Below, one piece after another: positions 9,172-25,669 of a stretch of 25,929 nucleotides of DNA. Source of the DNA: an uncultured Planctomycetaceae bacterium (lineage in GTDB: Bacteria; Planctomycetota; Planctomycetia; Pirellulales; Thermoguttaceae); assembly GCA_964469945.1 (NCBI GenBank), contig CAYYBU010000001.1:1-25929 (forward strand), read 5' to 3'. The notes under the pieces are model-generated. The model saw nothing but the letters and a program-made list of their open reading frames with translations, ran no database searches and was not told where the DNA came from. Numbering within the stretch: the first letter of the stretch is position 1; each line of letters starts with the position of its first letter. A program made the translations under genes and the position numbers.

Positions 9172-9174
9172 GAA

Positions 9175-10740: not shown

Positions 10741-10848
10741 TGTAGGGAACGCCCTCCGTGGCGTTCCGGACGTACCGGTACAAACGGAACGCCACGGAGG
10801 GCGTTCCCTACAGGAGTATGCCGGCGGCGGACGGAGTGTGCCGGATAC
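10741..10848. repeat. Family A palindrome (10741-10812) plus half copy of family B (10831-10848)
   Basis: Perfect 28-bp inverted arms, then acggagtgtgccggatac. Confidence 0.9.
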
Positions 10849-10878
10849 GTCATGGGAAAAATGGCTCAAAAAGAAAGC

Positions 10879-10907
10879 TTGAAAACCGACCGGCCTTGAG
10901 GTATCTT
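10879..10907 (+). promoter_or_regulatory. Putative internal sigma70 promoter TTGAAA-N17-TATCTT
   Basis: TTGAAA 10879-10884, TATCTT 10902-10907; same CTTGAAAAC context as the promoter at 2670; ATG follows 8 nt after the -10 box. Confidence 0.55.
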
Positions 10908-10915
10908 TTTTCTCG

Positions 10916-11098
10916 ATGATCACGCACGGCACAACACCTGCAAACGCGAAGAAAGTGGCGCAGCTCCACGCGGCGCTGGCCGAGCTGTTGGCCGACACGC
11001 TGCGGCGCGGCTTCTTCGGCACGGCCGCCGTGGAACTGAACATTCAGGACGGGACCATCCAGCATATCCGCCGCATGGTGGATCGGATCGAGAAGTAA
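10916..11098 (+). CDS. Small basic 60-aa protein, DUF2292/YezD-like
   Basis: LRRGFFGTAAVELNIQDGTIQHIRR resembles the (F/Y)G-V-x-(I/L)-xx-DG-xxxx-I pattern; no SD, probably leaderless. Confidence 0.65.
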   Translation: MITHGTTPANAKKVAQLHAALAELLADTLRRGFFGTAAVELNIQDGTIQHIRRMVDRIEK

Positions 11099-11115
11099 CG
11101 AGACGAAACTGAATT

Positions 11116-11202
11116 GGTATTGGCGAGAGCCTGTCGCGCGCCGACAGGTATCTGGCCGAGCCCACCGCGAGCCCCGATGGCTCCAGGTGGGCTTTTTTTG
11201 TT
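11116..11202 (+). promoter_or_regulatory. Structured leader RNA motif, copy 2
   Basis: GGTAT-tggcg-AGAGCCTG-tcgcgcgccga-CAGGTATCT-ggcc-GAGCCC...ccgat loop...GGGCT-TTTTTTGTT. Confidence 0.7.
11158..11202 (+). terminator. Intrinsic terminator directly upstream of the capsid genes
   Basis: agcccacc/ggtgggct outer stem, gagcc/ggctc inner stem, ccgat loop, T7 tract. Confidence 0.8.
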
Positions 11203-11242
11203 GCCGCAATCGATCGCACGTGAATCCAGGAAAGGAAAGGCG

Positions 11243-12187
11243 ATGACAGAAACGCTCCAGGAATTTTTCGATTCGCGCGGCGTGGCCGTGCGCGTGGACC
11301 GCCCGGCGGGCGTGATCCGGGGAGTGAAAATCCTCGGCCTCCGTTCGCGCAACGGCCGCAGCTATCTGCCCGAGGCGCTCGTGCAGGCCGCCGCGCTGTA
11401 TGAAGACGCCAAGGTCAACGTGAACCATCCCAAGGGCAACCCGGGCGGACCGCGCGACTACCAGGACCGCATCGGCGTGATTCGCAACGTGGCGGTGCAA
11501 GGCGAGGGCTTGTTCGCCGATTTTCATTTCAACCCCAAGCACGGCCTGGCGGAGCAGCTTCTCTGGGACGCCGAACATGCCCCGGAGAACGTCGGCTTCT
11601 CCCACAATGTCGAAGCCCGCACGGTCCGCCGCGGCCAGGACGTGGTCGTGGAGGCCATCACGCGGGTGCAGAGCGTGGACTTGGTGGCCGATCCGGCCAC
11701 GACGCGCGGGCTGTTCGAGGGGCAAGCCGGCCGGGAAACGCCCGCCGCCGGCGCCCGTGCGGCCCTCTCCCTCGATGACCTGAAACGCGACTACCCCGAA
11801 CTGGTCGAGGCGCTGTGCCAGGAACAGGCCGCCGAGTTGCGGCGGTTGGAAGGCGAACTGACGCGGCTGACGGAAGCGGCGTCGCTCTGCCGCAAGCAGG
11901 AAACCGCGCGGAAGCTGCTGCGCGAATTCCACTTGCCGGAGTGCGATGCGACCGACCCGCGGGCCGCGGCCATCACCAGCCCGCGGTTCATGCACACCTT
12001 GTTGGCGGCGGCCGACGAACCGGCCATGCGCGAACTGGTCGAAGAGCGGGCCCGGCTGGTCCGCACGCTGGGCGGCGCCGAGGCGGCGCAGGCCGCGGCG
12101 TGCGGCAGGCCGCTCTCGCGCGATCAACACCTCGTCGACGGCGCGGGGCCGTGCGACATGCGAAGCTTCGTGGCAGCGATTACCTGA
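11243..12187 (+). CDS. Prohead protease with C-terminal scaffold region, 314 aa
   Basis: ATG 11243 after AAAGG SD (ORF-track start 11114 lies in the leader); VNVNHP (His), VGFSH (Ser), VQSVDLVADPAT as in HK97/U35-like maturation proteases; helical C-terminus. Confidence 0.8.
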   Translation: MTETLQEFFDSRGVAVRVDRPAGVIRGVKILGLRSRNGRSYLPEALVQAAALYEDAKVNVNHPKGNPGGPRDYQDRIGVIRNVAVQGEGLFADFHFNPKHGLAEQLLWDAEHAPENVGFSHNVEARTVRRGQDVVVEAITRVQSVDLVADPATTRGLFEGQAGRETPAAGARAALSLDDLKRDYPELVEALCQEQAAELRRLEGELTRLTEAASLCRKQETARKLLREFHLPECDATDPRAAAITSPRFMHTLLAAADEPAMRELVEERARLVRTLGGAEAAQAAACGRPLSRDQHLVDGAGPCDMRSFVAAIT

Positions 12188-12228
12188 ACTTTACTTTCTT
12201 CCCACCTTTTTTTGGAGAGAACGAACCC

Positions 12229-12720
12229 ATGAGTGACAAGATGCGTTGGCGATATGGCGACACCAATCCCGTGGTGGCGAACGTGGCGGCGACGACCGTG
12301 ATCGAAATCGGCGATCTGCTCTGGCAGGACGCCGACAACGCCAAGCCGGCCGCGATGTTGCCCGACCGCGGCAGCAAGGCGGCCAATCAAGAGGCCTTCG
12401 CGGCGAATTTCCTGGGCGTGGCCATGACGCGCAGCCGCCAGGGGGAGATTGCGCCGGTGCGCGTGGCGACCACGGGCGTGATCGAATTGGACTGCCCGAG
12501 CAGCACCTTCGAGCTGGGCGACCTGATGAGCGTGGACAGCGCGGCCGCGGGCGCGCCGCTGTTGAACCAGCAGGCGATCAAGACGGCGGCGAGCCGTTAT
12601 GCCGTTGGCCGCGTGGCCAAGCGGCAGCCGTTGGCCGGCACCGGCGTGTTGGTCGACATCCGTTCGACCATCATGACGGGCGGCGTTCTCGGCGGCCGCA
12701 GCAGCGGCAGCGGCGTGTAA
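12229..12720 (+). CDS. Head decoration / capsid cement protein (DUF2190-like), 163 aa
   Basis: ATG 12229 with GGAG SD; IEIGDLL...FLGVAM...VRVATTGVIEL...GDL pattern; lies between protease and capsid. Confidence 0.75.
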   Translation: MSDKMRWRYGDTNPVVANVAATTVIEIGDLLWQDADNAKPAAMLPDRGSKAANQEAFAANFLGVAMTRSRQGEIAPVRVATTGVIELDCPSSTFELGDLMSVDSAAAGAPLLNQQAIKTAASRYAVGRVAKRQPLAGTGVLVDIRSTIMTGGVLGGRSSGSGV

Positions 12721-12770
12721 CGCGCCGCGGCGCAGAACCCCAGGACCCATTATCCAAGGAGAAGTCCAAC

Positions 12771-13964
12771 GTGACCGCGATCAAATACCGCGAACTGAAA
12801 CAGATGTACCAGAGCAACGGCCCGGAGCGGACGGTCAAGCACCTCCGCGAGGCGTTGCGGGAAGGGGAGTTGAAGGCGGAGGATTTCAGCCTGCGCGAGT
12901 TGGCCGAGGCGACCGTGGGCCCCGAGTGGGTCAAACGGCTCGACCCGCGCAGCGACGACGGCGTCCCTTTGCTCGAGGCCGGCGACGCCGTGGACGTGAC
13001 CGCCTTTGCCAACATTACCGGACAGATCATCTACTCGACCATCCTGGAGGCCTACACGCAAGAGGCCTTCGTGGTGTCGAAGTTGGTCGATACGGTGCCC
13101 ACGCGCTTCGACGGCGAGAAGATTCCCGGCATCGGCCGCGTGCGCGACGAAGTGGCCGAGGTGCGGCCCGGGATGCCGTATCCCAGCCTCGGGCTGAGCG
13201 AGGACTACATCGAGACCCCCTCGACCACCAAGCACGGTTTCATCGTGCCGGTGACGCGGGAGGCGATCTTCTTCGATCGCACGCACCTGATCGTTCAGCG
13301 GGCGTCGGAGGTCGGCGAAGTGCTGGGCGTGAACAAGGAGAAGCGGTTGTTGGACCTGGTGCTCGGCATCACCAACAACTACAAGTGGAAAGGCGCCAGC
13401 TACAAGACCTATTATGGCTCCGCCGACAACGGGCCGTGGGTGAACGAACTCGGCGAGGAACTGGTCGACTGGACGGACATCGACGCGGCCGAGCAACTGT
13501 TCGCCGAGATCCTCGATCCGTCCACCGGGGAACCGGTGCTGGTGTACCCCAACACGGTGCTGGTGATGCCGGCCTACAGCCATGCGGCGAACCGCGTGCT
13601 CAAGGCCACGGAAATCATCTACGACAGCGCGGCCACCGCGGACGGCCACACCATGACGGCGGCCGCCAACCCCTTGGATTCCTATCGGGTGGCGGAGAGC
13701 CGGCTGGCCTATCGCCGCATCATCGCCGCCGGCATCGCGCCGGAGGAGGCCAAGCGGTGGTGGTTCCTGGGCGACTTCAAGAAGGCCTTCGCCTACATGG
13801 AGAACTGGCCCATCACGGTTACCCAAGCGCGGACCAACAGCGAGGCCGAGTTCAACCAGGACATCGTGCTGCGCTTCAAGGCCAGCGAGCGCGGGGCCGC
13901 CGCGGTCATTAATCCCCGCTACGTCGTCAAGAGCACGGGCGTCAGCCGGGGCAGCGGCCAATAG
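12771..13964 (+). CDS. Major capsid protein, HK97 fold (Mu gpT-like), 397 aa
   Basis: GTG 12771 with AAGGAG SD; size and position; FANITGQII, TTKHGFIVPVTREAIFFD, PNTVLVMP, WFLGDFKKAF, ERGAAAVINPRYVVK. Confidence 0.85.
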   Translation: MTAIKYRELKQMYQSNGPERTVKHLREALREGELKAEDFSLRELAEATVGPEWVKRLDPRSDDGVPLLEAGDAVDVTAFANITGQIIYSTILEAYTQEAFVVSKLVDTVPTRFDGEKIPGIGRVRDEVAEVRPGMPYPSLGLSEDYIETPSTTKHGFIVPVTREAIFFDRTHLIVQRASEVGEVLGVNKEKRLLDLVLGITNNYKWKGASYKTYYGSADNGPWVNELGEELVDWTDIDAAEQLFAEILDPSTGEPVLVYPNTVLVMPAYSHAANRVLKATEIIYDSAATADGHTMTAAANPLDSYRVAESRLAYRRIIAAGIAPEEAKRWWFLGDFKKAFAYMENWPITVTQARTNSEAEFNQDIVLRFKASERGAAAVINPRYVVKSTGVSRGSGQ

Positions 13965-14037
13965 CCGCTTGGTTCGTATGCGAAGGCGCGGCCGCCGGTG
14001 GTCCATGCCGGCGGCCGCGACCGAAAATGAGGTCTTA

Positions 14038-14205
14038 GGCGTCGGAAGACAATTAACTACCGACTTCGTTCTGTAGGGAACGCCCTCCGTGGCGTTCCGT
14101 GACGTGCGAGAAAGGCCTTTTTCCGAGGCACGGAACGCCACGGAGGGCGTTCCCTACAAGGACGCTTTCATCGTCGATTGCGGTAGTTAATTGTCTTCCA
14201 ACGCC
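14038..14205. mobile_element. MITE-like element with 25-bp TIRs and TTA target-site duplication, containing a family A palindrome
   Basis: TIRs ggcgtcggaagacaattaactaccg (14038-14062) and cggtagttaattgtcttccaacgcc (14181-14205), one mismatch; TTA at 14035-14037 and 14206-14208. Confidence 0.7.
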
Positions 14206-14279
14206 TTAGGTCTTGGGAAAGACGAAGAACCGAGGCCCAAACCCCGAACCCTAAGACCCAAGACCACTTGGAGCTAATC

Positions 14280-15509
14280 ATGACGCGATCCACGCAAGCC
14301 TATCAGGGCGGATATATCGAAACCAATCCGGGCAGCACGGATCTCGACAAGCTGCTACAGAATTTCGGTCCGTTGCTGGACGCCGCGCCGCCGAGTTGCC
14401 AGGCCGCCGCGGACCCCGGCGCCGGCGACGACTCGGCGGGTACGGCCGGCCAGGGCACGTTTTTCGTCTTTTCTAAGTGGCTCAACACGGCCAGCGGCGC
14501 GCTGTGGATCTGTACCGATGCCACGCCCACGGCCGCGGTGTGGACACGGTATCGCGGCCCGGCCGGCCCGGCGGGGGCCGATGGCGCAACAGGGCCGGCA
14601 GGCGCGGCAGGTCCAGCAGGCGTTGCCGGGGCCAATGGGGCAACCGGAGCCACCGGTGCTGCGGGACCCAATCTCGTCAACGGCACGACGGCCACGACGC
14701 TGACCGGCCTGCTCAAGGGCGACGGCGCCACAGTCGGCGCGGCGACGGCAGATACCGATTACCTCACGCCGACCGGCGACGGCAGCGGATTGAGTGGTGT
14801 CCTCGGTACGGACGGCGGGACCATTTCGACGAGCACGGACGGCAGCGGCACCCTGACGGCTACCTGTTTTTGCGGTGACGGCTCGCAACTCGTCAATCTG
14901 CCCGGGCCCGCCGCGCTGAATTGCAGCGACCCTAGCTCCCTCGATCACGGCTTAATCGCGACGGACGGCGCCGGCGACCTGACGATGGCCGGCAACCTGA
15001 GTGCCAGTTCCTATGCCTCCACGGGAGCCGATACCTTCTGGGTCGATTCTTATTTATACACAGACCCCCCGCTGAACGAAATGTATGGCTTCACGTATCT
15101 CGGCATGGCAGTTTCTAACAGTAGTGGGTGGTCCGGGAGCGGTCTCGTTCTCGCGAACACTTTTGGTGGCGGTTCTCGGGTAGCGGGAATATCTTTCAGC
15201 GACGACACGCTGTGGTTCTGCTCGGTCCTCGACGATCAACGCTGGGTGGGAATCAGCGGAGATGGGTGCTACGACTTTCTCCAGCAGGGATCTTTGGGCA
15301 CCGGGTTTCTGAATGTCAACAATGTCGCTCACATCGGCACACCCTACGATGACGGCAGCGGGGCGGCCTTGCAGGTGGCCGGCAGCATCAGAGTCACCGG
15401 ATACGCCGAGACCGGCAGCGAGCCCGAAGGCATGATCTATTACGACACGGTCCATCACCGCCTGCGGGTAATGACCAACGCGGGCTGGAAAACGGCCACG
15501 CTGAGTTGA
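14280..15509 (+). CDS. Collagen-like fibre protein (head or tail fibre), 409 aa
   Basis: ATG 14280 with GGAG SD; 13 consecutive Gly-X-Y triplets (GPAGPAGADGAT...GPN); G/S/T/D-rich beta region; C-terminal EGMIYYDT...GWK. Confidence 0.8.
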   Translation: MTRSTQAYQGGYIETNPGSTDLDKLLQNFGPLLDAAPPSCQAAADPGAGDDSAGTAGQGTFFVFSKWLNTASGALWICTDATPTAAVWTRYRGPAGPAGADGATGPAGAAGPAGVAGANGATGATGAAGPNLVNGTTATTLTGLLKGDGATVGAATADTDYLTPTGDGSGLSGVLGTDGGTISTSTDGSGTLTATCFCGDGSQLVNLPGPAALNCSDPSSLDHGLIATDGAGDLTMAGNLSASSYASTGADTFWVDSYLYTDPPLNEMYGFTYLGMAVSNSSGWSGSGLVLANTFGGGSRVAGISFSDDTLWFCSVLDDQRWVGISGDGCYDFLQQGSLGTGFLNVNNVAHIGTPYDDGSGAALQVAGSIRVTGYAETGSEPEGMIYYDTVHHRLRVMTNAGWKTATLS

Positions 15510-15551
15510 GAAAACCGAACACCGATAACTCCATAACCGAAAGGACGCATC

Positions 15552-15917
15552 ATGACGACCCCCAATCCGTTTTTCCCCGTCCAGACTCCCAGCGCGCCCC
15601 AACCGACCCAGGCCCAACTCTTGGCGGCGGCACAGAACCACATGAGCCTGGATGGCCGTCAACTGCTCGCGCAGATGGTCAGTGTCATCCAACGCAACTG
15701 GTCGGCCGTGTGGGCAAACCCCAACTTCACCCCGGCACAGTACGTGGCGCAGCTCGGGACCAGTGCGGCGGAGGTCTTTCGTTGTGCCGGCCTATTGGTG
15801 GGCTGCATTGCAGCCATCAACCCCACGTTGCTCGATCCGAAGTACCTCAGCGCCGCGCAGGCCTACACGGTCCACCCCGACGGTACCGTGACCCTCAACT
15901 CGTCCAGCGGCAGTTGA
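15552..15917 (+). CDS. Hypothetical protein, possibly fibre-associated, 121 aa
   Basis: AAGGA SD, co-oriented, plausible composition; no family recognised. Confidence 0.7.
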   Translation: MTTPNPFFPVQTPSAPQPTQAQLLAAAQNHMSLDGRQLLAQMVSVIQRNWSAVWANPNFTPAQYVAQLGTSAAEVFRCAGLLVGCIAAINPTLLDPKYLSAAQAYTVHPDGTVTLNSSSGS

Positions 15918-15928
15918 TTGGCACACCC

Positions 15929-16063
15929 ATGAATCTCGACCAACTCGCAACCATGCCCCTCGATCAACTTTGCGACGGCAGCCTGTTCTGGTGGGAAGGC
16001 CGCTATGAGATTGCCGCCGGCGAAGTGACCGCCGCCGGAGCGCAGTGCGGCCGGGTGGCCTGA
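15929..16063 (+). CDS. Possible 44-aa hypothetical protein
   Basis: ATG 15929 to TGA 16063 fills the gap (MNLDQLATMPLDQLCDGSLFWWEGRY...); no clear SD. Confidence 0.3.
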   Translation: MNLDQLATMPLDQLCDGSLFWWEGRYEIAAGEVTAAGAQCGRVA

Positions 16064-16106
16064 ATTTGCTTTACGGAACCGAAAAAACCAGGATCGGTGG
16101 TCTACC

Positions 16107-16505
16107 ATGCCGGCGACATGCGATATCTACGGAACGGTGTTCGAGGGCGGCACGTGTACGCTGCTGGCCCGCATTGTCGACAGCAGCGGCGCGTGCCTGG
16201 CGCCATCCGCCCTGGCGACGCTGACTTATTCGGTCTACCTGCTGGATGACGACGATGCCGACCGGCGCACGCCCGTGGCCGGCCACGAGGCGGTTGCGCT
16301 GGTTATTGCCGGCGTGGTGCTCGACCAGCCGCGCGTGGACGCGACCTGGACGATCGACACGATCGGCTACAACTTTTGCCACCTGCTGGACGTCTCGGCC
16401 AGCCCGGCGTTTCCCACGGCCGGACGGAAATATCTGGTCGAATACCGGCTCACGCCCAGCAGCGGACAAGTGGTCCTGCTGCGGTTTCGCGTGAACGCCA
16501 TTTAG
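16107..16505 (+). CDS. Hypothetical virion-associated protein, 132 aa
   Basis: Co-oriented, beta-rich, host-like codons, lies in the head-completion region. Confidence 0.7.
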   Translation: MPATCDIYGTVFEGGTCTLLARIVDSSGACLAPSALATLTYSVYLLDDDDADRRTPVAGHEAVALVIAGVVLDQPRVDATWTIDTIGYNFCHLLDVSASPAFPTAGRKYLVEYRLTPSSGQVVLLRFRVNAI

Positions 16506-16529
16506 AACTTTATTGCAAGGCGACCTGCT

Positions 16530-16745
16530 ATGCCCACGGACATCGAACGACTGGCCACCATCAAGGCACAGGCTTTGGCTTTGATCGCCGAAATCACGGC
16601 CCAGCCGAAGCCGACGTACCAGATCGACGGCCAGAACATCTCCTGGGGAGAATATCTCGGGCAGTTGCAGAGCACCGTGCAGTGGTGCGACCAGCAAGCG
16701 GCGGCCGGCGCGCCGGTCGAGGTGCGGTCGCAGGGATACACGTAA
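16530..16745 (+). CDS. Head-to-tail joining protein, lambda gpW-like, 71 aa
   Basis: Helix-hairpin-helix pattern with PTYQIDGQNISW; size and position. Confidence 0.65.
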   Translation: MPTDIERLATIKAQALALIAEITAQPKPTYQIDGQNISWGEYLGQLQSTVQWCDQQAAAGAPVEVRSQGYT

Positions 16746-16751
16746 GAAAGG

Positions 16752-17405
16752 ATGAAGATGGACCCGACTTCCGATTTCGCCGCCGTTTGCGACGGTCTCG
16801 AAGCGGTGACGCTATGCCGGCGCGGCAGCATTCCCGGCGGCCCGGGCACGGTCATTCCCCATGCCCTCCGCCGCCAGGTGACCACGCGCGAGGCCGCCGC
16901 GTCCAACGGAAAATACACGGCCAACGACGTCACCTGGCACCTGCCCGCGGCGGAACTGCACGATGCGCCGCGCCTGGGCGACGTGGTCCTCAGCGGCGAG
17001 GGATGCCAATGGACGGTCTTGGACGTGCAACGCACGACGCTGGGCTCGCGCTGGCGCTGCACGGCGCGCAACGCGACCGTGGTCTATGGCCTGGACGACT
17101 GCATCACGATCGTCAAGGCGATCTACCGCAAGGGAGCTGGCGGGGCTGCCGAACCCACCTGGCTGCCTTGGAAGACGGGCGTTCGCGCCCGCATCCAGCC
17201 GGCCGAGATGCGCGTGGGCAGCCAACACGAGGCGCGCGAGGCAACCACGCGCTGCCAAATCTTCGTCGCCGAGGAACTTGTCCTGGACCAAACGCACCGC
17301 ATCCAGGCAGCCGATGGCACCCTCTACAAGGTGCTGGGCACGAGCCGTGCCCAACGCATTGGGGAACTATTGACCATCGACGCCGAAGTGACGCCCTGGC
17401 CATGA
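16752..17405 (+). CDS. Head closure / head-tail connector (gpFII/SPP1 gp16-like, possibly two tandem domains), 217 aa
   Basis: PRLGDVVL...WTVLDVQ...RWRC and RIQPAE...LYKVLG...LLTIDAEV both resemble head-closure beta barrels. Confidence 0.55.
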   Translation: MKMDPTSDFAAVCDGLEAVTLCRRGSIPGGPGTVIPHALRRQVTTREAAASNGKYTANDVTWHLPAAELHDAPRLGDVVLSGEGCQWTVLDVQRTTLGSRWRCTARNATVVYGLDDCITIVKAIYRKGAGGAAEPTWLPWKTGVRARIQPAEMRVGSQHEAREATTRCQIFVAEELVLDQTHRIQAADGTLYKVLGTSRAQRIGELLTIDAEVTPWP

Positions 17406-17427
17406 CAAACCACGAGGAGCAGGCCCC

Positions 17428-17829
17428 ATGAATCTGGCTCAAGTCATCCATCAGCGTTGGGCGGCGGCCGCGGCGTTGAACGCCCTGCTGCCGGCCGCGC
17501 GGGTCTATACCGGCATGAGCGTGGATCCAACCGTGCCGTTCGCCACCATCAACAAGGAAAGCGAACGTCCGGCGGCATACCTCAATGACGGCTCGTCGGT
17601 GGCGACGGTCGGCTTGCGCATCGACGTGTTCCACGCTCAGCATGACGCCGCGGCCGCGATCGTGGCGCAGATCAAGGCCGTCTTCGACCGCAGCGCGTTC
17701 GCCCTGGCCGGCAGCGATAAGGTCGTCGACGTGCTGTGGGTCAACGACTTCGAGCGGCAAACCGCCGACAGCGTTTGGCAATGCACCTGCGAGTTGAATT
17801 GCACCGTGCAGTTGGCCGCGGGCCAGTAG
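17428..17829 (+). CDS. Tail terminator / tail completion protein (DUF3168-like), 133 aa
   Basis: ALNALLPAARVYTG...PFATI...LRIDVF...AAAIVAQIKAVFD pattern; directly before the tail tube gene. Confidence 0.75.
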   Translation: MNLAQVIHQRWAAAAALNALLPAARVYTGMSVDPTVPFATINKESERPAAYLNDGSSVATVGLRIDVFHAQHDAAAAIVAQIKAVFDRSAFALAGSDKVVDVLWVNDFERQTADSVWQCTCELNCTVQLAAGQ

Positions 17830-17883
17830 TATCCGGCACACTCCGTGTGCCGTTGCGGGCGGCACACGGAGTGTGCCGGATAC
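17829..17883. repeat. Palindromic repeat family B
   Basis: gtatccggcacactccgtgtgccg...cggcacacggagtgtgccggatac overlapping the stop codon. Confidence 0.9.
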
Positions 17884-17927
17884 ATTGAAACGACTTCACT
17901 ATCAACCTTAGCAAGGAGAAGCATGGC

Positions 17928-18326
17928 ATGGCCGTATTAAGCGGAAAAAGCGGCACCCTCTACCTGAACAGCGACGAGGTGACTCCCGTCTCGAACTGGA
18001 AATTCACCATCACCAGCAACAATCCGTCCTACGCCGCCAATGACACCGGCGGCTGGAAACAACGTGCCGCGGGCGTGTGCGATTCCACGGGCTCGTTCCA
18101 GGTCAAGGTCGACGACAGCGGACATTGCCCCGTGGCCGAGGGAGACGCCGCCACGCTGCAATTGCACGTCGACAACAGCGGCAACAACTACTACCAGGTC
18201 CCCGCGATCATCGACAAGATCGAGGTCGATGTCGATCTGAGCGCCGGCAAGATACTCGCCTACGCCGTGGAGTTTTCCGGCAACGGCGCGGTGACGCCGA
18301 ACGGCATCGTGGCCAAGGCCAGTTAG
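17928..18326 (+). CDS. Major tail tube protein (siphovirus type), 132 aa
   Basis: AAGGAG SD; MAVLSGKSGTLY...W...DTGGWKQRAAG...TGSF...YAVEFSGNG tube pattern. Confidence 0.8.
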   Translation: MAVLSGKSGTLYLNSDEVTPVSNWKFTITSNNPSYAANDTGGWKQRAAGVCDSTGSFQVKVDDSGHCPVAEGDAATLQLHVDNSGNNYYQVPAIIDKIEVDVDLSAGKILAYAVEFSGNGAVTPNGIVAKAS

Positions 18327-18335
18327 GGGGAAGAA

Positions 18336-18410
18336 GGGGACAGGTCCATATTTTCGGACCGCATCACGTCTGCGAGCCAGGTCGATTGGCCGAAAAATGG
18401 ACCAGTCCCC
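18336..18410. repeat. GGGGACAGGTCCATATTTTCGG / CCGAAAAATGGACCAGTCCCC palindromic repeat
   Basis: Imperfect inverted arms 18336-18357 and 18390-18410. Confidence 0.8.
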
Positions 18411-18451
18411 GCGCACCTCGTGAACGCTTACGTGGAAAAAGAGATGTTGCC

Positions 18452-19258
18452 ATGCATACCCGATCGTCGTCACAAACTGTCCCCTCCACGTCGTCCGAAG
18501 GCGCTGTGGCGGATAGCATTGAGCGTGCCCGGGATTCCCTCGACGTTCTGAGCGAGACGGTCCGCAGCGTGGTCGAAAGCCTCAGCAGCATGATGGCAAT
18601 CCTGCGCGCGGTGGCCGACCACGGCGCCGAGGAGAGCGGCGACTCGGCGCGGCAGCCGTTCGTGCGGCAAGGCGAATCCCCGCAACCCGTGGAGGATCGT
18701 GCGGCGTCGGCGCCGGCCCGGTTGCGAGCGACCGAGGAGGACCGCGGCCCGGATGAAGCAGCCGACCGTGGCGACGAGGCGCGCCGGCCTTTTCCCGAGA
18801 AGGCAGACGCGGGGGCACCCCCGTCCAGGCTGCGCGGGGAGGATGCTGACGAGCAAGACGCAGAGAATCGCCCGGCCTACAGTACGGCCGCGCCGAGCAC
18901 CGCACCCGAGAATGCCCATGAAGAGCAAGCGTCCGATGCCGCTGACCCGCTGTCCTCCACGCCTGCCGCGCAGGGGGCCGATGACGTACAGTCGGCGCTG
19001 CCGAGCCAGTCGCTTCCCGGGCCAAGCGACGATGTCCAGCAGTTTCCCTCGCCGTATGCCGATGCGGCATCGTCCGTCATGCTGCCGCCTTTTCCGGCCG
19101 CCAGCGTCATGGATCTCCAGGGACTTTTCCAAGACGTGGCCACGCACAGCGATCAGCAGGAGCAGATCCGCATTGCTCGCGAGCAACTGGCCGAACAGAA
19201 AGGCATTCGCGAAGCATTGGCCAACCAAGGCAGCGCGGAAGCCGCCTGGGGAGAGTGA
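18452..19258 (+). CDS. Low-complexity protein with helical ends, candidate mini tape measure, 268 aa
   Basis: ATG 18452 in the 18077 ORF frame; helical N- and C-termini flanking an A/P/S/D/E-rich centre; stop 2 nt before the next ATG. Confidence 0.55.
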   Translation: MHTRSSSQTVPSTSSEGAVADSIERARDSLDVLSETVRSVVESLSSMMAILRAVADHGAEESGDSARQPFVRQGESPQPVEDRAASAPARLRATEEDRGPDEAADRGDEARRPFPEKADAGAPPSRLRGEDADEQDAENRPAYSTAAPSTAPENAHEEQASDAADPLSSTPAAQGADDVQSALPSQSLPGPSDDVQQFPSPYADAASSVMLPPFPAASVMDLQGLFQDVATHSDQQEQIRIAREQLAEQKGIREALANQGSAEAAWGE

Positions 19259-19259
19259 C

Positions 19260-19958
19260 ATGGACGGTTTGAGCCAGTTGACCGCCGCCGGCCACACCGT
19301 GACGTGCGGCGGCCGCACCTACCACCTGAGTCCGTTGACGTTGGCGGACTATGGCGAGATCGAGAACCAGATCGTTGCCGCGCGTGCCGATCCACGCGGC
19401 GGACTGCGGCAGCGGCTGGCCGGCATGAGTGCCGAGGAACAGGAACAGGAATTGGAGCGGGTCTTCGACCAGGCCGTGGCGGCGCGGCGCGTGACCCTCG
19501 GCGATCTGGACCAGTGGTGGCAGACGTGGGCGGGTCTCTGTTACCGCTTCTGGCTGATGATCCGCAAGCGGCAGCCGAGCGTGGAGCTCGAAGAGGCCGC
19601 GGCGATCCTCGCACGTCTGTCCTTGGAGAGGCGGGCGGAGCTGGTCCGCCGCATGGAAGCCTGTTACGGATTGCCGGTGGACCAGCCGATGGGCGGCCCG
19701 GCTGAGGAGCGCGACGCCGCCTGGCGCGATGCGGCGCCGCCGTGGGGCCAATGGGCGTGCCGTTTGAGCCGCCTCTACGGCTGGTCGCCCGCCGAACTCG
19801 CCGCGCTGACGATCGCGCAGATGTGGACTTATTTGACCGAATCGTGCGGGCCCGGCGCGTGCAAACGCATGGCGGTGGCCGACGGGCTGGCTTATTGCGC
19901 ACGGCGGCGCCGGCAACGCGAACAATGGATTCGCCAGATGATGGAGAAACGATCATGA
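19260..19958 (+). CDS. Tail assembly chaperone, G and T-like regions in one frame, 232 aa
   Basis: ATG 19260 after GGAG; GRTYHLSPLTLADYGEIE (G-like) and LSRLYGWSPAELAALTIAQM (T-like). Confidence 0.65.
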   Translation: MDGLSQLTAAGHTVTCGGRTYHLSPLTLADYGEIENQIVAARADPRGGLRQRLAGMSAEEQEQELERVFDQAVAARRVTLGDLDQWWQTWAGLCYRFWLMIRKRQPSVELEEAAAILARLSLERRAELVRRMEACYGLPVDQPMGGPAEERDAAWRDAAPPWGQWACRLSRLYGWSPAELAALTIAQMWTYLTESCGPGACKRMAVADGLAYCARRRRQREQWIRQMMEKRS

Positions 19959-20830
19959 CCGTGTTGTTCAAGGAACTGGCCGGCTCGCCCACGGAAACTT
20001 ATGGGCCGGAAGGCATGGCCGCCCAACGGCGTTTGCTCTGTGCCTATGAAGATCGGCTGAGCGTGGTGGCCGCGCTGTTGGGCACCGCCAACGCAAGCGA
20101 CGGCCCCTGGCAGGCCCAATATCCGGGCCACCCCGGCGTGATGGCCACGCGGGTGCGCGTGGAACCGTTCGAGAAGAAGCCCGACGATCAGGGCGCATTC
20201 CTGGATCTGACGGCGGATCTGAACAGCTACAGCAATCAGTTCGCCCAGGTCGTGGTCAGCTACGAGTTGATCGATGGGGGCGGTTATCCGAAAATGCCCG
20301 GCGCGCAGCCGGGCACGATCCTCACCTACCGTATGGACTTTGCCGGCGAATATCTCACGCTGCCCGGACAGAGCTTGCAGTGGCAATCCGACGCCACGCT
20401 GCCGGTGCCGCCGGACGCCGTGCCCACGCTGCGGATCCCCATCGTCGAGCACCAACTCACCTGGCGGCACGTGATCGATCCGCCCTGGGACGCCATTCGC
20501 GATTGCGCGGGCACGGTCAACAACGCGCTTTTCATGGGCGCGGCCGCCGAGACCGTGCTATTCGATGGCGCCAGGGCCGATCGCGAGTTCGTCGGCCTGG
20601 ACGACTTTCAGCAACCGCAGTTCGGCTGGCGCATCACTTACGTCTTCCGGGAAAAGGCCATCAAGATCCTCGACGGCATTTTCGGCGAGACCACCTACGG
20701 TTGGAACCACTGTTACTGCGACGTGCCCTTTCCCAATTCGTGCTGGGACCGGCTGGTCGATCAGAACGGCAACTCCCTCTATGCGACGGAGGATTTCGAT
20801 GCCCTGTTCGAGTTCACGGCGATATCGTAA
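19955..20830 (+). CDS. Putative distal tail / hub protein, 291 aa
   Basis: ATGA overlap with the preceding stop; aromatic beta-rich sequence; position in the tail module. Confidence 0.6.
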   Translation: MTVLFKELAGSPTETYGPEGMAAQRRLLCAYEDRLSVVAALLGTANASDGPWQAQYPGHPGVMATRVRVEPFEKKPDDQGAFLDLTADLNSYSNQFAQVVVSYELIDGGGYPKMPGAQPGTILTYRMDFAGEYLTLPGQSLQWQSDATLPVPPDAVPTLRIPIVEHQLTWRHVIDPPWDAIRDCAGTVNNALFMGAAAETVLFDGARADREFVGLDDFQQPQFGWRITYVFREKAIKILDGIFGETTYGWNHCYCDVPFPNSCWDRLVDQNGNSLYATEDFDALFEFTAIS

Positions 20831-20859
20831 AGATCGGCGGAAAAATAATATCCGCAAAT

Positions 20860-20913
20860 CGTAGGTCAGGCTGTGCCTGACACCCCAGACTGTCAGGCAC
20901 AGCCTGACCTACG
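20860..20913. repeat. REP-like GTAG palindrome (CGTAGGTCAGGCTGTGCCTGACA)
   Basis: Perfect 23-bp inverted arms 20860-20882 and 20891-20913. Confidence 0.9.
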
Positions 20914-21017
20914 GGGGACTGGACCTTCCGCCCAAGTCCGGAAGTTATTACTCGGCCGATCCCAAGGATCGGCAGATGAACGGTTGTTACATTACAACGC
21001 TCCGCAGTGAGTTCCCC

Positions 21018-22136
21018 ATGACGATCGAACGTGTCCATCGCGGCGATCCACTGAGCGCCGCTTGTCAGAACGAACTGATCGACCAGGTCAATGCCCTGGG
21101 TCGTCCCGGGACTGCCGGAGAGGCCCAGTACGGCAGCGGCGGCATCACGTTTTTCGGCCCGCGGCGGACGCCCCTGGCGATCTTCCAACTGCTCGAGGAG
21201 TTGAACTACCCGAACCTGACCGACGCCCCCAGCGATCATTTCGATCGCGAGCCGACGGCCTATGCCACGGCGCAGATGGTCTGGTGTCAGCAGTTCCAGG
21301 CGACGGATGTCGCGCCGGACGGCCAGGCGGTGCGCAGCTACGGTGGCAGTCAGCATTCCGCCGTGGTCACCATCTGGCATCCTTGTGCGCCGTGCAACGC
21401 CGCCGGCTACGCCGTGGGGCCATCCCCCTTTGCCGCGGGTAGCCGTGTGGTTTGCCAATGGGATCGCCAGAGCGGCCGTTGGGAGATCCTCGGCGACGGC
21501 CCGCCGTGGGTGGTTTCCTACGCCAAAGTGCAGGCCGGCTGCGGGTACACGAACTTCGGCATGATGGCCGGCTTTTGTCAAAACTCGACATCCGTCCCCG
21601 TCATGCTGTGCGACGCGGACGGTTCCAATGAGGTGGGCGGCGTCATGAACCTGCCGCTGCCCAGTCTTGGAGACACCTGCAGCGTGCCGCCCTCGCGTTC
21701 GCCGGCCTTGTTTCCCGGCGACGTGATCAAGCTCGGCCGCGATCAGACCGGGCAGTGGACGATTCTCGACTACGGCGCGCACATCGACGATGCCGGCGGT
21801 ACGGTGCGCATGCAGATCTATGCACAGATCCCCCGCGGCTGGTCGGCTTATGCGCTGATGACGGATCGCATGCCCATCGGCGCCGGCGGCCAGTATGCCC
21901 CGGAGTGGACCGGCGGAGGCATCTACCCGGACCATCGGCACGCCCTGGACACGACCACCTTCGGCACCGCCTGGGTCGCGGCGGGAAACAACGTCAATGC
22001 GCTGACCTCGGTGGGACAGGTCGTCGCGACCGGCGATGAGGAACCGATGCCGAACCCCACCCCGCCGTATCTCGAACAGCCGCCGACGTATATGCCGCCC
22101 TACTGCCCCTTGCAGTTCATCCAGCGCAGCAGTTGA
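21018..22136 (+). CDS. Putative tail tip / fibre protein, 372 aa
   Basis: N-terminus VHRGDPLSAACQNELIDQVN resembles fibre-anchoring segments; the rest is G/P/W/Y-rich; start 21018 preferred over 20976. Confidence 0.55.
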   Translation: MTIERVHRGDPLSAACQNELIDQVNALGRPGTAGEAQYGSGGITFFGPRRTPLAIFQLLEELNYPNLTDAPSDHFDREPTAYATAQMVWCQQFQATDVAPDGQAVRSYGGSQHSAVVTIWHPCAPCNAAGYAVGPSPFAAGSRVVCQWDRQSGRWEILGDGPPWVVSYAKVQAGCGYTNFGMMAGFCQNSTSVPVMLCDADGSNEVGGVMNLPLPSLGDTCSVPPSRSPALFPGDVIKLGRDQTGQWTILDYGAHIDDAGGTVRMQIYAQIPRGWSAYALMTDRMPIGAGGQYAPEWTGGGIYPDHRHALDTTTFGTAWVAAGNNVNALTSVGQVVATGDEEPMPNPTPPYLEQPPTYMPPYCPLQFIQRSS

Positions 22137-22167
22137 TGGCCCCGATCCGTACCGTGCGATCTTCACC

Positions 22168-23196
22168 ATGAGAGTTTTCGTCATCGGCTATCCCTCGGCG
22201 ATCGGTGGGGCCAACACCGAACTGTGGCACACGGTGAAACTGTGGCGCCGCTTCGGCTGCGACGTCGCGCTGCTGCCCACCTGGCAGGCTGACCCCGCCT
22301 GGCAGTTGCGCCTGGAGAATCTGGGTTGTCGCACCATCGAGAGCCAGCCCGATGATCTGGATCGTGTGCCCGGGCTTGCCGGCGGCATCGTCGTGGTGTT
22401 TTGCAATACGCGATTTCTGGCGGCCGCCGAGCGTTTTCGCCGGCTCGGCTGCCGCGTGGTCTGGCTGGGTTGCATGAATTGGCTTTTTCCCGAGGAACGG
22501 CTGCATTATCGGCAATTCGGCCCCTTCGCCCGGCACGTCTTCCAGAGCCGTTACCAGCACGACGAACTGACACCGCAACTACGCCCTTATGGATATGAAG
22601 ACGGTCGGGGACGAATCATTCGCGGCGCCTGGGATGCCGACGAACTGGCTTTCGCGCCTCGCCCCCATGCGGCGGGCGAAGTTTTCGTCGTCGGGCGAGT
22701 CAGCCGCGCCGATCCCGATAAGTTCTCGCCCACGCTGTGGAAAACCTACGGACGGATTCCGCATCCGATCCGGGCTCGCGTGCTGGGCTGGCAACAGGAC
22801 ATACAGGCGCGGCTGGGACCGCCGCCACCGTGGGCCGAGTGCTTTCCCGCCGGGGCACAGACGCCCGCGCAACTGCTCCACTCGCTCCATGCCCTGGTGC
22901 AGGCCAACGCCGCGGCAGTGGAAAACTGGCCGCGGGTCGGCCTGGAAGCCATGGCCGCGGGCGTGCCCCTGGTGGTCGATGCCAAAGGCGGCTGGCAGGA
23001 GATGATCCGCCACGGCGAGACCGGTTACCTCTGCACGACCGACGACCAGTTCGCCTACTATGCCGCACGCTTGGCCTATGACGAAGAGCACCGCCGGCAA
23101 CTCATCCGCCAGGCCCGGCACGCGCTGCTCCACGAATTGGCCGAGCCCCGGGCGATCTGGTCGCAGTGGCAGGCGTTGTTTGAGGAATTGTCATGA
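22168..23196 (+). CDS. Glycosyltransferase, GT-B fold (GT4-like), 342 aa
   Basis: MRVFVIG...GGANT start; ENWPRVGLEAMAAGVPLVV...GGWQEMIRHGETGYL signature. Confidence 0.9.
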   Translation: MRVFVIGYPSAIGGANTELWHTVKLWRRFGCDVALLPTWQADPAWQLRLENLGCRTIESQPDDLDRVPGLAGGIVVVFCNTRFLAAAERFRRLGCRVVWLGCMNWLFPEERLHYRQFGPFARHVFQSRYQHDELTPQLRPYGYEDGRGRIIRGAWDADELAFAPRPHAAGEVFVVGRVSRADPDKFSPTLWKTYGRIPHPIRARVLGWQQDIQARLGPPPPWAECFPAGAQTPAQLLHSLHALVQANAAAVENWPRVGLEAMAAGVPLVVDAKGGWQEMIRHGETGYLCTTDDQFAYYAARLAYDEEHRRQLIRQARHALLHELAEPRAIWSQWQALFEELS

Positions 23197-23912
23197 AAAT
23201 CGCCGCCGTGTGCGTCACTTACCTGCGTCCCAGGCAATTGGGCTGGATGATCCAATGCTTTCTTCGCCAGGATTATCCGGCCGCGAAACGGGAGTTGGTC
23301 ATTCTGGACGATGCGGGCCAATACGACGACGCCTCGGGAGCGGGCTGGCGGTTGATTTCCACGGCGACGCGGTTTCCCACCCTGGGGGAAAAACGCAATG
23401 CGGCGGCCGCCCTAGTGGCCGCCGACACCGACGCCCTGGCCGTCTGGGACGACGACGATTTGTATCTGCCCTGGGCGCTGTCGGCCTCGGCCGCTGCCTT
23501 GAAACGTGCCGCCTGGTCGCGTCCCTCCCTGGTCCTCCACCGGCAAGACGACGGCCGGCTACAACAACATCACACCGGCGGACTGTTTCACGGCGGTTGG
23601 GCCTATCGGCGCGACCTGTTCCGCCGCCTCGGCGGCTATCCGGCCATGGACAACGGCGAAGACCAGGCCCTGGCCGCGCGGTTCCGCGGCGCCCGCATTG
23701 AGCCGGCCGACCCCTGCACGCTTGAATGGCCGCCCTTTTACATCTACTGTTGGAGCGGCCACGGCTGGCACCTGTCGGGCATGGGCGGCGACGGCTATCG
23801 GCGGTTGGGCGCCTTCCGCGGAGAGAAAACGCCGCTGGAAATCGTCGATCCGCCGGGCATCGATCTGTGCCATCCGCCGATCGTGCCCGGCGTACATCCG
23901 AGGATATTTTGA
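23193..23912 (+). CDS. Glycosyltransferase, GT-A fold (GT2-like), 239 aa
   Basis: CVTYLRP, FLRQDYP, ELVILDD, LGEKRN, WDDDD (DxD), GEDQAL; ATGA coupling to the previous gene. Confidence 0.9.
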   Translation: MKIAAVCVTYLRPRQLGWMIQCFLRQDYPAAKRELVILDDAGQYDDASGAGWRLISTATRFPTLGEKRNAAAALVAADTDALAVWDDDDLYLPWALSASAAALKRAAWSRPSLVLHRQDDGRLQQHHTGGLFHGGWAYRRDLFRRLGGYPAMDNGEDQALAARFRGARIEPADPCTLEWPPFYIYCWSGHGWHLSGMGGDGYRRLGAFRGEKTPLEIVDPPGIDLCHPPIVPGVHPRIF

Positions 23913-23929
23913 AGGAAAACGGTCAAACC

Positions 23930-24775
23930 ATGAAGCCGATTCGCTTGATTCGCGCGGTTTCCGCCCAAACCGGTCGCGGCCCGGGCAACGGCCAGTATGC
24001 CTTGCAAAAGGCCTTGCGGGAATTCGGGCCGCCCTGGCTCCGCATCGGCGGCATCTTGCAGAAGAAGGAAATTCCCTGGTTCTGGTGCTGGGAAGACGGC
24101 GAGGCGGCCGCACTGTGCGCACGAACCGGACAACCCTTCGTCGCCGGCCCCAATATCCTCTTTGCCCAGAGCCGCCAGCCCTGCCACAACGAGGCCGAGC
24201 GGGCGATCTGCGCGGCGGCCAGTTGCCGACTGCTCTTCACCGAATCGCACTGGTACCGGCGGCTCATCGAGCAGTATCGCGGTCCGGCCAACCGCGCGCC
24301 GCTGGTGGTGTGGCCCTATCCGATCGATCCGCATCCCGGCGGCCCGCTGCCCGCCGAGCACGACTTGTTGATCTACGAGAAATCGGGCGTCGCTGCGGAG
24401 ACCGTGGCACGGTTGCAGCAAGCCTGGCCGCGGTCGGTCGTCATTCACTATGGGCGTTATCGGCGCGACGATCTGATCCAGGCCGCGCGGCGGTCGCGAT
24501 GTTGCGTGTACCTGTCCGATGATGATCGCGGTCCGTTGGCCTTGGCGGAAATTCTTTTGTCCGGCTGTCCGGCAGTGGGAATACCGCGCGGCGCGCCGTT
24601 CATTCGGCCCGGCCGCACGGGCGTGTTGCTGGACCGACTCGACGGGCAGGCGTGCGTGGAGGCGGTGGCCCAGTGCCGGCTTTTGGATCGCAAGGCCGTC
24701 GGCGCGCTGGCGGCCAGACAATTCGATGCCCGGCGGATTGTGGGGATCATCGTCGCGGCGCTGGGGGAGGTGTAG
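23930..24775 (+). CDS. Glycosyltransferase, GT-B-like, 281 aa
   Basis: ATG 23930 after AAGGA; DDRGPLALAEILLSGCPAVG...GRTGVLL is a degenerate GT4-type C-terminal motif. Confidence 0.7.
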   Translation: MKPIRLIRAVSAQTGRGPGNGQYALQKALREFGPPWLRIGGILQKKEIPWFWCWEDGEAAALCARTGQPFVAGPNILFAQSRQPCHNEAERAICAAASCRLLFTESHWYRRLIEQYRGPANRAPLVVWPYPIDPHPGGPLPAEHDLLIYEKSGVAAETVARLQQAWPRSVVIHYGRYRRDDLIQAARRSRCCVYLSDDDRGPLALAEILLSGCPAVGIPRGAPFIRPGRTGVLLDRLDGQACVEAVAQCRLLDRKAVGALAARQFDARRIVGIIVAALGEV

Positions 24776-24796
24776 CGAAAGTAACCGTTTAGGCTC

Positions 24797-24897
24797 GGCC
24801 GAAAAATAACTTCCCGATTTGCCCGTACTCGTCACGCTCCGCCGTGAGGAATTGCATCACGACGGAGCGTGACGAGTAGGGAAGTTATTCTTCGGCC
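24797..24897. repeat. Long composite palindrome at the 3' end of the cluster
   Basis: ggccgaa/ttcggcc, aataacttccc/gggaagttatt and 22-bp tactcgtcacgctccgccgtga/tcacgacggagcgtgacgagta nested arms. Confidence 0.85.
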
Positions 24898-25020
24898 GGC
24901 CCTTACAAGAGAAAAAGGGAGAGAGTCGCGATTATCGACGACGGGAAAGAAATGGCCCAAATATGTCAATAAGCGCGCCCGTCCCCCTTCCTCCCCCAAC
25001 CTGCAAAAATCAGTGATGTC

Positions 25021-25314
25021 CCGTACTCCGGTCCCGACGCTTTCCTATACAGCGGTGGGGTCATGCACGACCTAAACAACTTGATACCTTCCAATGCTGG
25101 ATGGACACTTACTTACGCTTTTGACATCAACGACTCGGGGCAAATCGTTGGTATGGGGATAAATCCCCACGGTCAGTAGGACGCATTTCTCCTCAACCCC
25201 GTCCCTGAACCTTCCACTCTTGTCCTATTGGCTGTCGGGGCTGGTGGTCTGATTGGCTACCGTTGGCGAAGGAAGCGGGCGAATGGTTGCCGAGAGCTAC
25301 GCGCCACGTTTTAG
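25021..25314 (+). pseudogene. 3' remnant of a HAF-repeat / PEP-CTERM exported protein gene
   Basis: Frame from 25021: PYSGPDAFLYSGGVMHDLNNLIPSNAGWTLTYAFDINDSGQIVGMGINPHGQ*DAFLLNPVPEPSTLVLLAVGAGGLIGYRWRRKR; in-frame TAG at 25177-25179; upstream stop at 24970 and no 5' part. Confidence 0.85.
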
Positions 25315-25402
25315 GACGCGATCAAAGGGGTCGGGACGCGATCAAAGGGGTCGGAAGTCGTTTCACAAGCGCGATCAAAGGGGTCGGAAGTCGTTTCACA
25401 AG
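25314..25402. repeat. Tandem direct repeats of a GGGGTCGGAAGTCGTTT-type element
   Basis: 20-bp unit twice (25314-25353), 33-bp unit twice (25337-25402); inverted partner aaacgactcccgacc at 25506-25520. Confidence 0.8.
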
Positions 25403-25669
25403 GCCCGCGCACCGATCGGGGGCGTGGCAAGCCATCCCGCCCACGGCTACACAAATCCACCGTGACATGCCCACCAGCGTACCAGAAACGCCCCACGTGT
25501 CAATAAAACGACTCCCGACCGCACTTCAACAGTTCTGAGGCCCTCGCTTGCGCTTCGGGCTCCCATGAGACGCCAAGGACCGGCGAGTCAATAGCTGTAC
25601 TCATCGCGCTCCGCCGCGATGAAAAGGCATCATGGCGGAGCGTGGGAACATGCCAAGCGGGCGTCGCTG

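Follow-up and report, generated by a model that had tools for sequence, protein, structure and literature searches.

The window, by which we mean the whole 25,929-nt stretch analyzed here (contig CAYYBU010000001.1), belongs to a metagenome-assembled genome with a GC content of 64% that was recovered from peat or wetland and is assigned to Pirellulales/Thermoguttaceae. Its plus strand carries a compact phage-type module of head and tail genes from about 5.2 kb to 22.1 kb (cluster span, 5193 to 22136), which is followed by three glycosyltransferase (GT) genes, GT1 to GT3. A first-pass annotation had proposed that this trio glycosylates the particles encoded by the module. The genes at the junction are as follows.

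19955..20830, plus strand: g19955, conserved Dit-like distal-tail gene, present in 95 of 401 genomes of the order
20976..22136, plus strand: tail20976, variable distal tail gene, 386 aa, directly 5' of GT1
22137..22167, plus strand: junction between the tail gene and GT1, 31 nt, read directly
22168..23196, plus strand: GT1, predicted soluble GT-B enzyme (GT4-like), 342 aa, always the first gene of the cassette
23193..23912, plus strand: GT2, predicted soluble enzyme of GT-A fold, 239 aa
23930..24775, plus strand: GT3, predicted compact GT-B enzyme, 281 aa

The stop codon of tail20976 (TGA, 22134 to 22136) is separated from the GT1 start codon (ATG, 22168) by exactly 31 nt, and this start is backed by homologues that align from residue 1 to 3 rather than from the in-frame upstream ATG at 22036. 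GT1 and GT2 overlap in the sequence ATGA (23193 to 23196), and 17 nt lie between the end of GT2 (23912) and the start of GT3 (23930). Direct reading thus confirmed the 31-nt gap and the ATGA coupling described in the first-pass annotation, and its statement that the junction lacks a promoter and a terminator also held, no such site being predicted around 22100 to 22200. No gene was found between GT3 and the repeat element that follows it. The GC content of the three genes (65 to 67%) and their GC content at third codon positions (0.76 to 0.80) match those of the cluster and the genome, so the three genes were not recently inserted from a foreign source. On the upstream side, 145 nt containing a perfect 23-bp hairpin (20860 to 20913) separate g19955 from the block formed by tail20976 and GT1 to GT3, so that read-through from the main operon into this block is at most putative; a similar hairpin lies 3' of GT3 (24823 to 24881). 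Two wetland metatranscriptomes contained perfect-match contigs in tail20976, GT1, GT2, and GT3, one of them spanning the GT1/GT2 junction (23138 to 23233) and none spanning the tail-GT1 junction (22136 to 22168). The level over the GT block was sparse and about the same as over the structural genes.

GT1 was recognized by Pfam, and GT2 and GT3 by their AlphaFold (AF2) folds and invariant motifs, in agreement with the GT-B, GT-A, and GT-B-like assignments made initially. GT1 matches Glycos_transf_1 (PF00534; 50.4 bits, 2.4e-13; cut-off, 26.4), its EX7E motif reads ENWPRVGLE (residues 252 to 260), with E252 kept in 54 and E260 in 53 of 55 homologues, and its sequence matches in the Protein Data Bank are GT4 enzymes such as BshA. 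GT2 stays under the Pfam cut-off by sequence (PF00535, 17.3 versus 23.3 bits), and some homologues at 60 to 70% identity do carry PF00535. Its AF2 model has a GT-A fold (predicted local distance difference test [pLDDT], 90.6) with Foldseek matches to the GT-A enzymes AvpGT, WrtF, and TarS/TarP (E of about 1e-8), and D86 to D89 (DDDD, a DxD-type motif) are invariant among homologues. GT3 is also under the cut-off by sequence (PF13692, 23.7 versus 27 bits; PF00534, 17.6 bits), a few of its homologues having a precomputed PF13692 match; its model shows a two-Rossmann GT-B fold (pLDDT, 93.8; predicted template modeling score, 0.90), in which D199-X7-E207, a DX7E variant of the EX7E motif, is invariant. 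Foldseek placed GT3 among GT4-type structures (probability, 1.0; E of about 1e-8), including the Ser-repeat O-glycosyltransferases SdgB, GtfA/B, and GtfC, matches that are not discriminating because all GT4 enzymes score alike. We found 547 homologues of GT2, mostly from Thermoguttaceae/Pirellulales; GT2 and GT3 each have hundreds of metagenome homologues, with about 59 to 77% identity among the best 120 listed, and nearly all of those listed are either unnamed or labeled Thermoguttaceae/Pirellulales. GT1 to GT3 are real enzymes with conserved catalytic motifs.

None of the three proteins contains a predicted transmembrane segment, the highest 19-residue Kyte-Doolittle score being 1.58, compared with 2.5 to 2.6 for the two membrane-anchored proteins of the window. 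Neither sugar-nucleotide synthesis genes nor flippase genes were found among the window open reading frames scanned, so that both absences reported in the first-pass annotation stand. No curated NCBIfam family matched GT1 to GT3 above its cut-off. Membership in an anti-phage defense system was rejected, since PADLOC gave no match for GT1 to GT3 and the Pfam family GT4-conflict scored 16.2 bits against a cut-off of 26.

Strong GT1 homologues were present in 13 of 41 related genomes. In at least 9 of these 13, GT1 lies directly 3' of g19955, usually with GT2 next, and in several loci (L025, L026, L029, and others) it begins within 7 to 30 nt of g19955, with no gene between. The order tail gene, GT1, GT2 (in some cases followed by GT3) was found in all nine Pirellulales loci retrieved through GT1 from a species-level genome collection. 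Among viral contigs of IMG/VR, 48 carry a GT2 homologue; 39 of them have GT1 upstream on the same strand, and at least 31 of these 39 have recognizable tail-tip genes directly upstream. The downstream flanks vary among loci while the GTs remain attached, and reading frames are intact and the coupling preserved in most loci. Loci whose GT1 is more nearly identical to that of the window also have a more nearly identical g19955 (r = 0.86, n = 18), and the GT1 tree separates a window-type group from a group of tape-measure-bearing phages with support of 97/91, which indicates that the link between the cassette and the reduced window-type cluster is old.

These data bear on the possibility that ordinary host polysaccharide genes adjoin the cluster by chance. 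Generic GT4 and GT2 folds and a host-like composition would fit such an origin, but adjacency to tail genes recurs in more than 12 genera and in dozens of viral contigs with differing downstream neighbors, the patchy occurrence of close GT1 homologues (13/41) is unlike that of core envelope genes, and wherever the context could be checked, most GT1 homologues adjoin tail genes. We therefore regard chance adjacency as very unlikely. The claim of the first-pass annotation that the trio belongs to the particle cluster is borne out by synteny across many genera and viral contigs, by codivergence, and by the host-like composition.

The cassette is nevertheless far from universal. Of 401 genomes sampled evenly over the order, 95 have g19955 and 36 have close GT1 homologues, the two being linked in 13, and in the window's own family the GTs are linked to 12 of 37 clusters. 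The first-pass annotation had named absence from most homologous clusters as an outcome that would refute its proposal, and this is the distribution that we found. Since the cassette is missing from most homologous clusters, it must be dispensable for particle formation; a functional tie to the cluster is argued from the coupling, which is tight and conserved wherever the genes are present. By gene order and phylogeny, the trio truly belongs to the particle cluster as a conserved accessory and is neither part of its core nor a chance neighbor. Relatives vary in what their cassettes contain, taking in methyltransferases, extra GTs, and a pyruvyltransferase. In the closest relative (L013/L014, G016:C1, about 609800 to 610600), whose GT1 is 77% identical, the GT3 homologue is split across two frames, through either a frameshift (decay) or an assembly error.

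GT1 homologues from other families, which at first seemed unlinked, sit behind the tail genes of a different prophage type. There, the order is tape measure, Dit (about 261 aa), tail-tip protein (530 to 870 aa), GT1, and further GT-A/GT-B genes; FkbM-type methyltransferases, a radical-SAM protein, or a pyruvyltransferase are also encoded in relatives. In these tape-measure-bearing lineages, the tail-tip protein ends 6 to 29 nt before GT1 and consists of 18 to 42% Ser, with 40-residue windows reaching 70 to 100% Ser. The Ser tracts are runs such as SSSGSSSGSSS and pure poly-Ser, between which a Cys-rich motif, TDVRCE..L.VY.R.V....G.L....G.W...H.AGCC, is conserved. Examples of these poly-Ser tail-tip proteins, which have counterparts in about 25 further loci, are as follows.

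L062:6171-8267
L066:6776-8422
L042:9842-12013, minus strand

The g19955 product shows weak similarity to the Dit of these prophages (29%, E = 4e-6). Gene order and descent link the cassette with tail genes in three lineages, whose clusters are phages or phage-like.

The coincidence of GT1 with the poly-Ser protein was assessed on 80 viral loci gathered through the Dit protein, irrespective of GTs; combined with Dit-bearing loci collected earlier, this gave 51 dereplicated loci of readable state. Both genes were present in 22 loci and neither in 27, while one locus had only the poly-Ser protein and one had only GT1 (Fisher exact test, p = 3e-12). The well-supported branches of the Dit tree require at least five changes of the joint state, showing that the poly-Ser protein and GT1 switched together repeatedly in the two tape-measure-bearing lineages. 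Such joint switching is expected of an enzyme and its acceptor, not of a host-directed conversion gene or a DNA-modifying enzyme. This covariation is the strongest available argument for glycosylation of a protein over that of DNA or the envelope. The GT3 fold matches to enzymes acting on Ser-repeat proteins agree with it, although they do not stand out among GT4 matches. In some of the IMG/VR contigs (L060 and L066), He_PIG Ig-like repeat proteins of 770 to 1,350 aa come after the cassette on the same strand, which places it inside the virion module and not at its end.

Some cassettes of these relatives are larger or more numerous. In L060 (11753 to 20067) and L066 (11741 to 18452), the cassette is enlarged to five to six transferase domains plus a methyltransferase and a pyruvyltransferase, and the repeat proteins also hold Calx-beta and cadherin-like repeats and may be glycosylated fibers. 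One genome of the window's family (G101) has three separate GT1-led cassettes (contigs C4, C163, and C189); in the two contigs examined, C4 and C189, GT1 follows a poly-Ser tail protein with 27 to 32% Ser, and a further contig of this genome carries a window-type cluster without GTs. In a 135-kb IMG/VR contig of 46% GC (L072), a GT2::GT3-like fusion lies behind two 600-aa proteins that each fuse GT-B and GT-A domains; the phage bearing this glycosylation island probably has a different host.

The first-pass annotation had also offered packaged DNA as the acceptor. Sugars would then be placed on modified bases as in T4, whose glucosyltransferases, like the products of GT1 and GT3, are soluble GT-B enzymes. 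Apart from this likeness, nothing was found in its favor. The window has no modified-base gene such as a hydroxymethylase, the three to six transferases and the methyl- and pyruvyltransferases of relatives indicate the building of an oligosaccharide, and the cassette covaries with a poly-Ser protein; DNA glycosylation is thus extremely improbable.

Modification of the host surface deserves more weight. Here, the soluble GTs would act in the manner of lysogenic conversion, decorating an envelope polysaccharide while it is still a cytoplasmic intermediate, or else a surface glycoprotein of the host, and would thereby mask the particle receptor on producer cells or alter susceptibility to other phages. 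A precedent is TarP of S. aureus prophages, a soluble GT-A enzyme that modifies wall teichoic acid, and both TarS and TarP are among the fold matches of GT2. The cassette closes the tail module, where conversion genes are usually found; the curated families nearest to GT1, although far under their cut-offs, are GTs of exopolysaccharide (EPS), lipopolysaccharide (LPS), and PEP-CTERM systems; an accessory cassette with varying enzyme content resembles surface-glycan loci; and the window lineage offers no obvious acceptor protein. However, the cassette has no promoter or terminator of its own and is tightly coupled to the tail gene (31 nt, ATGA), there is no flippase, membrane GT, or transmembrane segment, and modification of the host surface predicts neither the poly-Ser covariation nor a position inside the virion module ahead of Ig-repeat proteins. 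We consider it rather unlikely, although a serious competitor.

If the acceptor is a particle protein, it has to be sought among different proteins in the window lineage. No poly-Ser protein was found upstream of GT1 in window-type clusters, where the proteins have 3 to 8% Ser, nor was a poly-Ser open reading frame found elsewhere in window-type loci; the 68%-complete genome holds no convincing poly-Ser protein or second prophage elsewhere. The highest Ser fraction in any 30-residue stretch of the window cluster proteins is 0.30. The tail20976 protein has an ordinary Ser content (6%), is conserved in relatives only in its N-terminal part (about residues 39 to 173), and has no match in Pfam or PHROG; its homology to the poly-Ser tail-tip proteins was rejected as not significant (E = 0.6 to 1.7). 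Two other genes of the module matter here.

12229..12720, plus strand: cement/decoration protein of the capsid (Pfam Phage_cement_2, 25.3 bits; cut-off, 24; domain end at residue 143)
14280-15509: collagen-like S/T-rich fiber, 20% Ser+Thr

The S/T-rich fiber, which the first-pass annotation had put forward as the candidate acceptor, was discarded as a conserved acceptor, since no homologue is detectable in the other GT-bearing clusters and two of them (L028 and L044) have no space for one. Nine conserved particle proteins were examined for differences linked to the GTs, in about 27 exploratory comparisons of GT-bearing with GT-less clusters. For the capsid, portal, protease, connector, tail-tube, and Dit proteins, neither C-terminal tails nor S/T content were associated with GT presence. 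In contrast, all GT-bearing clusters examined, about 18 genomes or contigs, encode a cement protein in which a conserved TGGV is followed by a short tail with Ser/Thr residues. The consensus of this tail is EGSSPSGV, the window has LGGRSSGSGV (residues 154 to 163), and in two GT-bearing genomes the tail is lengthened to runs of four to six Ser (SSSSSS), while in several GT-less clusters the protein stops at TGGV. GT-bearing clusters differed from GT-less ones in the S/T count of the tail in each of two partly independent samples (Mann-Whitney test, p = 0.001 and 0.002), a signal picked from the exploratory comparisons and confounded by relatedness. A second, weaker GT-linked difference was seen in g16752 (p = 0.015 to 0.024). 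The Ser-rich C-terminal tail of the cement protein is thus a lead, the best candidate acceptor in the window lineage, not an established one.

The missing poly-Ser partner of the sister lineages could also mean that the trio is an inherited relic or has been repurposed, the poly-Ser acceptor of a phage ancestor having been lost and the GTs now drifting or acting on unrelated host substrates. Loss of the GTs from most clusters and the GT3 gene split across frames in G016 would agree with this. Against it, the catalytic motifs are invariant over hundreds of homologues at 59 to 77% identity, the well-supported window-type GT1 group (97/91) codiverges with the tail gene over many genera, and frames and coupling are kept intact in most loci. 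A relic is accordingly improbable.

We give about even chances to the reading that the three genes form an intact, coinherited, glycan-building cassette at the tail end of a phage-derived particle cluster and O-glycosylate a particle protein. Soluble GT1 to GT3 would be produced along with the late gene products. GT1, the proposed initiating enzyme, would act in the cytoplasm and add the first sugar to Ser hydroxyls of a particle protein; GT2 (an inverting-type GT-A enzyme with a DxD motif) and GT3 (GT-B) would next lengthen it into a short O-glycan, either while the particle is being assembled or beforehand, and the released particles would bear a glycan coat. We infer the protein nature of the acceptor and the order of enzyme action; in the window, the acceptor would be the Ser-rich tail of the cement protein or another particle protein. 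The particle glycosylation put forward in the first-pass annotation thus gains from the covariation with poly-Ser tail proteins in sister phages and loses from the lack of such a protein in the window lineage.

Several observations weigh against particle glycosylation. The cassette is absent from two thirds of the clusters of the window's family and from nearly all clusters in other families, and the window's own lineage has no poly-Ser protein in the cluster or elsewhere in the 68%-complete genome. As to the substitute, the same cement tail is also kept by several GT-less clusters. Lysogenic-conversion genes, too, classically occupy the spot behind the last tail gene, enzymes of polysaccharide synthesis typically have GT4 and GT2 folds, and the nearest NCBIfam matches, far under their cut-offs, are EPS, LPS, and thiol enzymes. 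Finally, a repeat hairpin lies between the tail20976-GT block and the remaining operon, and the sparse metatranscriptome signal could stem from DNA carry-over.

The carrier of the cassette appears unlike a free phage. The module comprises, in order, ParB-like, ATPase-GNAT, small and large terminase, portal, protease-like, cement, and major capsid genes, followed by the collagen-like fiber, head-tail attachment and tail-completion genes, a probable tube gene, the Dit-like g19955, and the variable distal tail gene. IMG/VR lists window-type contigs as viral. The capsid protein is 66 to 86% identical in 28 of the 41 relatives, which belong to many families, the cement protein was found in 187 of the 401 Pirellulales genomes, and where present, both nearly always occur as a single copy. 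Because of this conservation, prevalence, and copy number, and of genome-wide repeats in its intergenic spaces, the head-tail cluster looks like a vertically inherited, domesticated element, similar to a gene transfer agent (GTA), rather than an ordinary prophage. We tentatively propose, as a doubtful but not negligible extension of this view, that an order-wide domesticated GTA-like Pirellulales particle has its own variable cassette, bears glycans on its cement tails, and descends from an undescribed phage with a portable pair of GT-B "initiator" and poly-Ser protein. In most window-type clusters (L013, L015, L017, L019, and L020), the tube-like g17928 is directly followed by the Dit-like gene; the extra genes of the window at 18452 to 19958, for a disordered 268-aa protein and a 232-aa chaperone-like protein, are missing there, leaving most window-type clusters without any tape-measure candidate.

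To our knowledge, glycosylated bacteriophage particles have been demonstrated for mycobacteriophages only, and Freeman et al. in 2023 reportedly located the Che8 glycans on the C termini of capsid and tail-tube subunits. The window resembles the Che8-type systems in having soluble GTs of a phage or phage-derived element with proposed cytoplasmic O-glycosylation of virion proteins, and the Ser-rich C-terminal tail of the cement protein would be analogous to the Che8 C termini. It differs in that GT1 and GT2 have no detectable sequence relation to the mycobacteriophage enzymes (the group of Che8 gp110 and Corndog gp38), the host is a member of the Planctomycetota, the GTs are coupled to tail genes, the carrier looks domesticated rather than like a free phage, and glycosylation is a prediction. 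No match to GT1 or GT2 was obtained by tblastn against 50,697 GenBank phages at E ≤ 1e-3, so that cultured-phage relatives of both were dismissed, and the 50 best viral fold matches of GT2 included no mycobacteriophage protein. The relation to Che8 drawn in the first-pass annotation is therefore one of analogy, not of membership. Two articles that describe the study of Freeman et al. treat virion glycosylation by phage GTs in the mycobacteriophages Che8, Corndog, and Myrna (PMC12363180 and PMC11256854), and the latter places the GTs of Che8-like phages near the other genome end and not at the tail genes (PMC11256854).

The Ser-rich-repeat glycoprotein systems known from Gram-positive bacteria (GtfA/GtfB, GtfC, and SdgA/SdgB, the last with SD repeats as substrate) offer a parallel in enzyme logic: a cytoplasmic GT-B enzyme starts, and GT-A/GT-B enzymes extend, O-glycans on long Ser-rich tracts, and in the sister phages the cassette goes with proteins containing up to 42% Ser. 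Unlike those systems, there is no accessory Sec system here, the acceptor would be a phage tail protein and not an adhesin, and the window has no Ser-rich repeat protein. With GtrABC seroconversion and TarP-like modifiers, the locus shares GT genes at the tail-module edge of a temperate element, and TarP recurs among the fold matches of GT2. Yet unlike GtrABC loci, the cassette has no GtrA-type flippase, membrane-bound GtrB/GtrC, or separate promoter, and it covaries with a virion protein in sister lineages. As in RcGTA-type GTAs, the window cluster is compact, limited to head and tail genes, single-copy, and present in about half of the genomes of the order; in contrast to them, its transfer function and random DNA packaging are putative. 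It carries glycosyltransferases, and we know of no GTA reported with its own; in the searchable literature we found no report of a glycosylated phage or phage-derived particle in Planctomycetota or of a GTA-like element with its own GTs. Compared with what has been published, the new elements are GT1 and GT2 enzymes unrelated to known ones, a new host phylum, coupling to tail genes, a poly-Ser partner in sister phages, and a probably domesticated carrier. The comparative result, a cassette at the tail genes in three lineages together with joint poly-Ser switching, provides a concrete enzyme-substrate hypothesis. If this hypothesis holds, virion glycosylation would also occur in environmental phages and domesticated particles, surface-glycan diversification would explain the varying enzyme content of cassettes among otherwise orthologous clusters, and the loci would be a source of new soluble protein O-glycosyltransferases.

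The cluster is also accompanied by nested palindromic repeat elements.

20834..20958: element in the gap between g19955 and tail20976, possibly a partial terminator or RNA-stability element
24791..24903: element directly 3' of GT3, likely the 3' end of the transcription unit
25597-25644: further nested palindromic element

In these palindromes, an outer arm family, CGGCCGAAAAATAACTTCC / GGAAGTTATT.TTCGGCCG, surrounds differing inner hairpins. The arms have 97 and 202 matches genome-wide at up to three mismatches. Copy numbers per arm family range from dozens to about 100 over the 3.7-Mb assembly. By copy number and structure, the palindromes are REP/MITE-like repeats (repetitive extragenic palindromes or miniature inverted-repeat transposable elements), two of them inside or adjoining the cluster. 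As the same palindromes occur throughout the genome, the inverted repeats around tail20976 and the GTs were rejected as cassette borders. Just 3' of the cassette, at 25021 to 25314, lies the remnant of a PEP-CTERM-type C terminus (VPEPSTLVLLAVGAGGLIGYRWRRKR), which includes an in-frame stop and is followed by stuttered direct repeats at 25317 to 25402.

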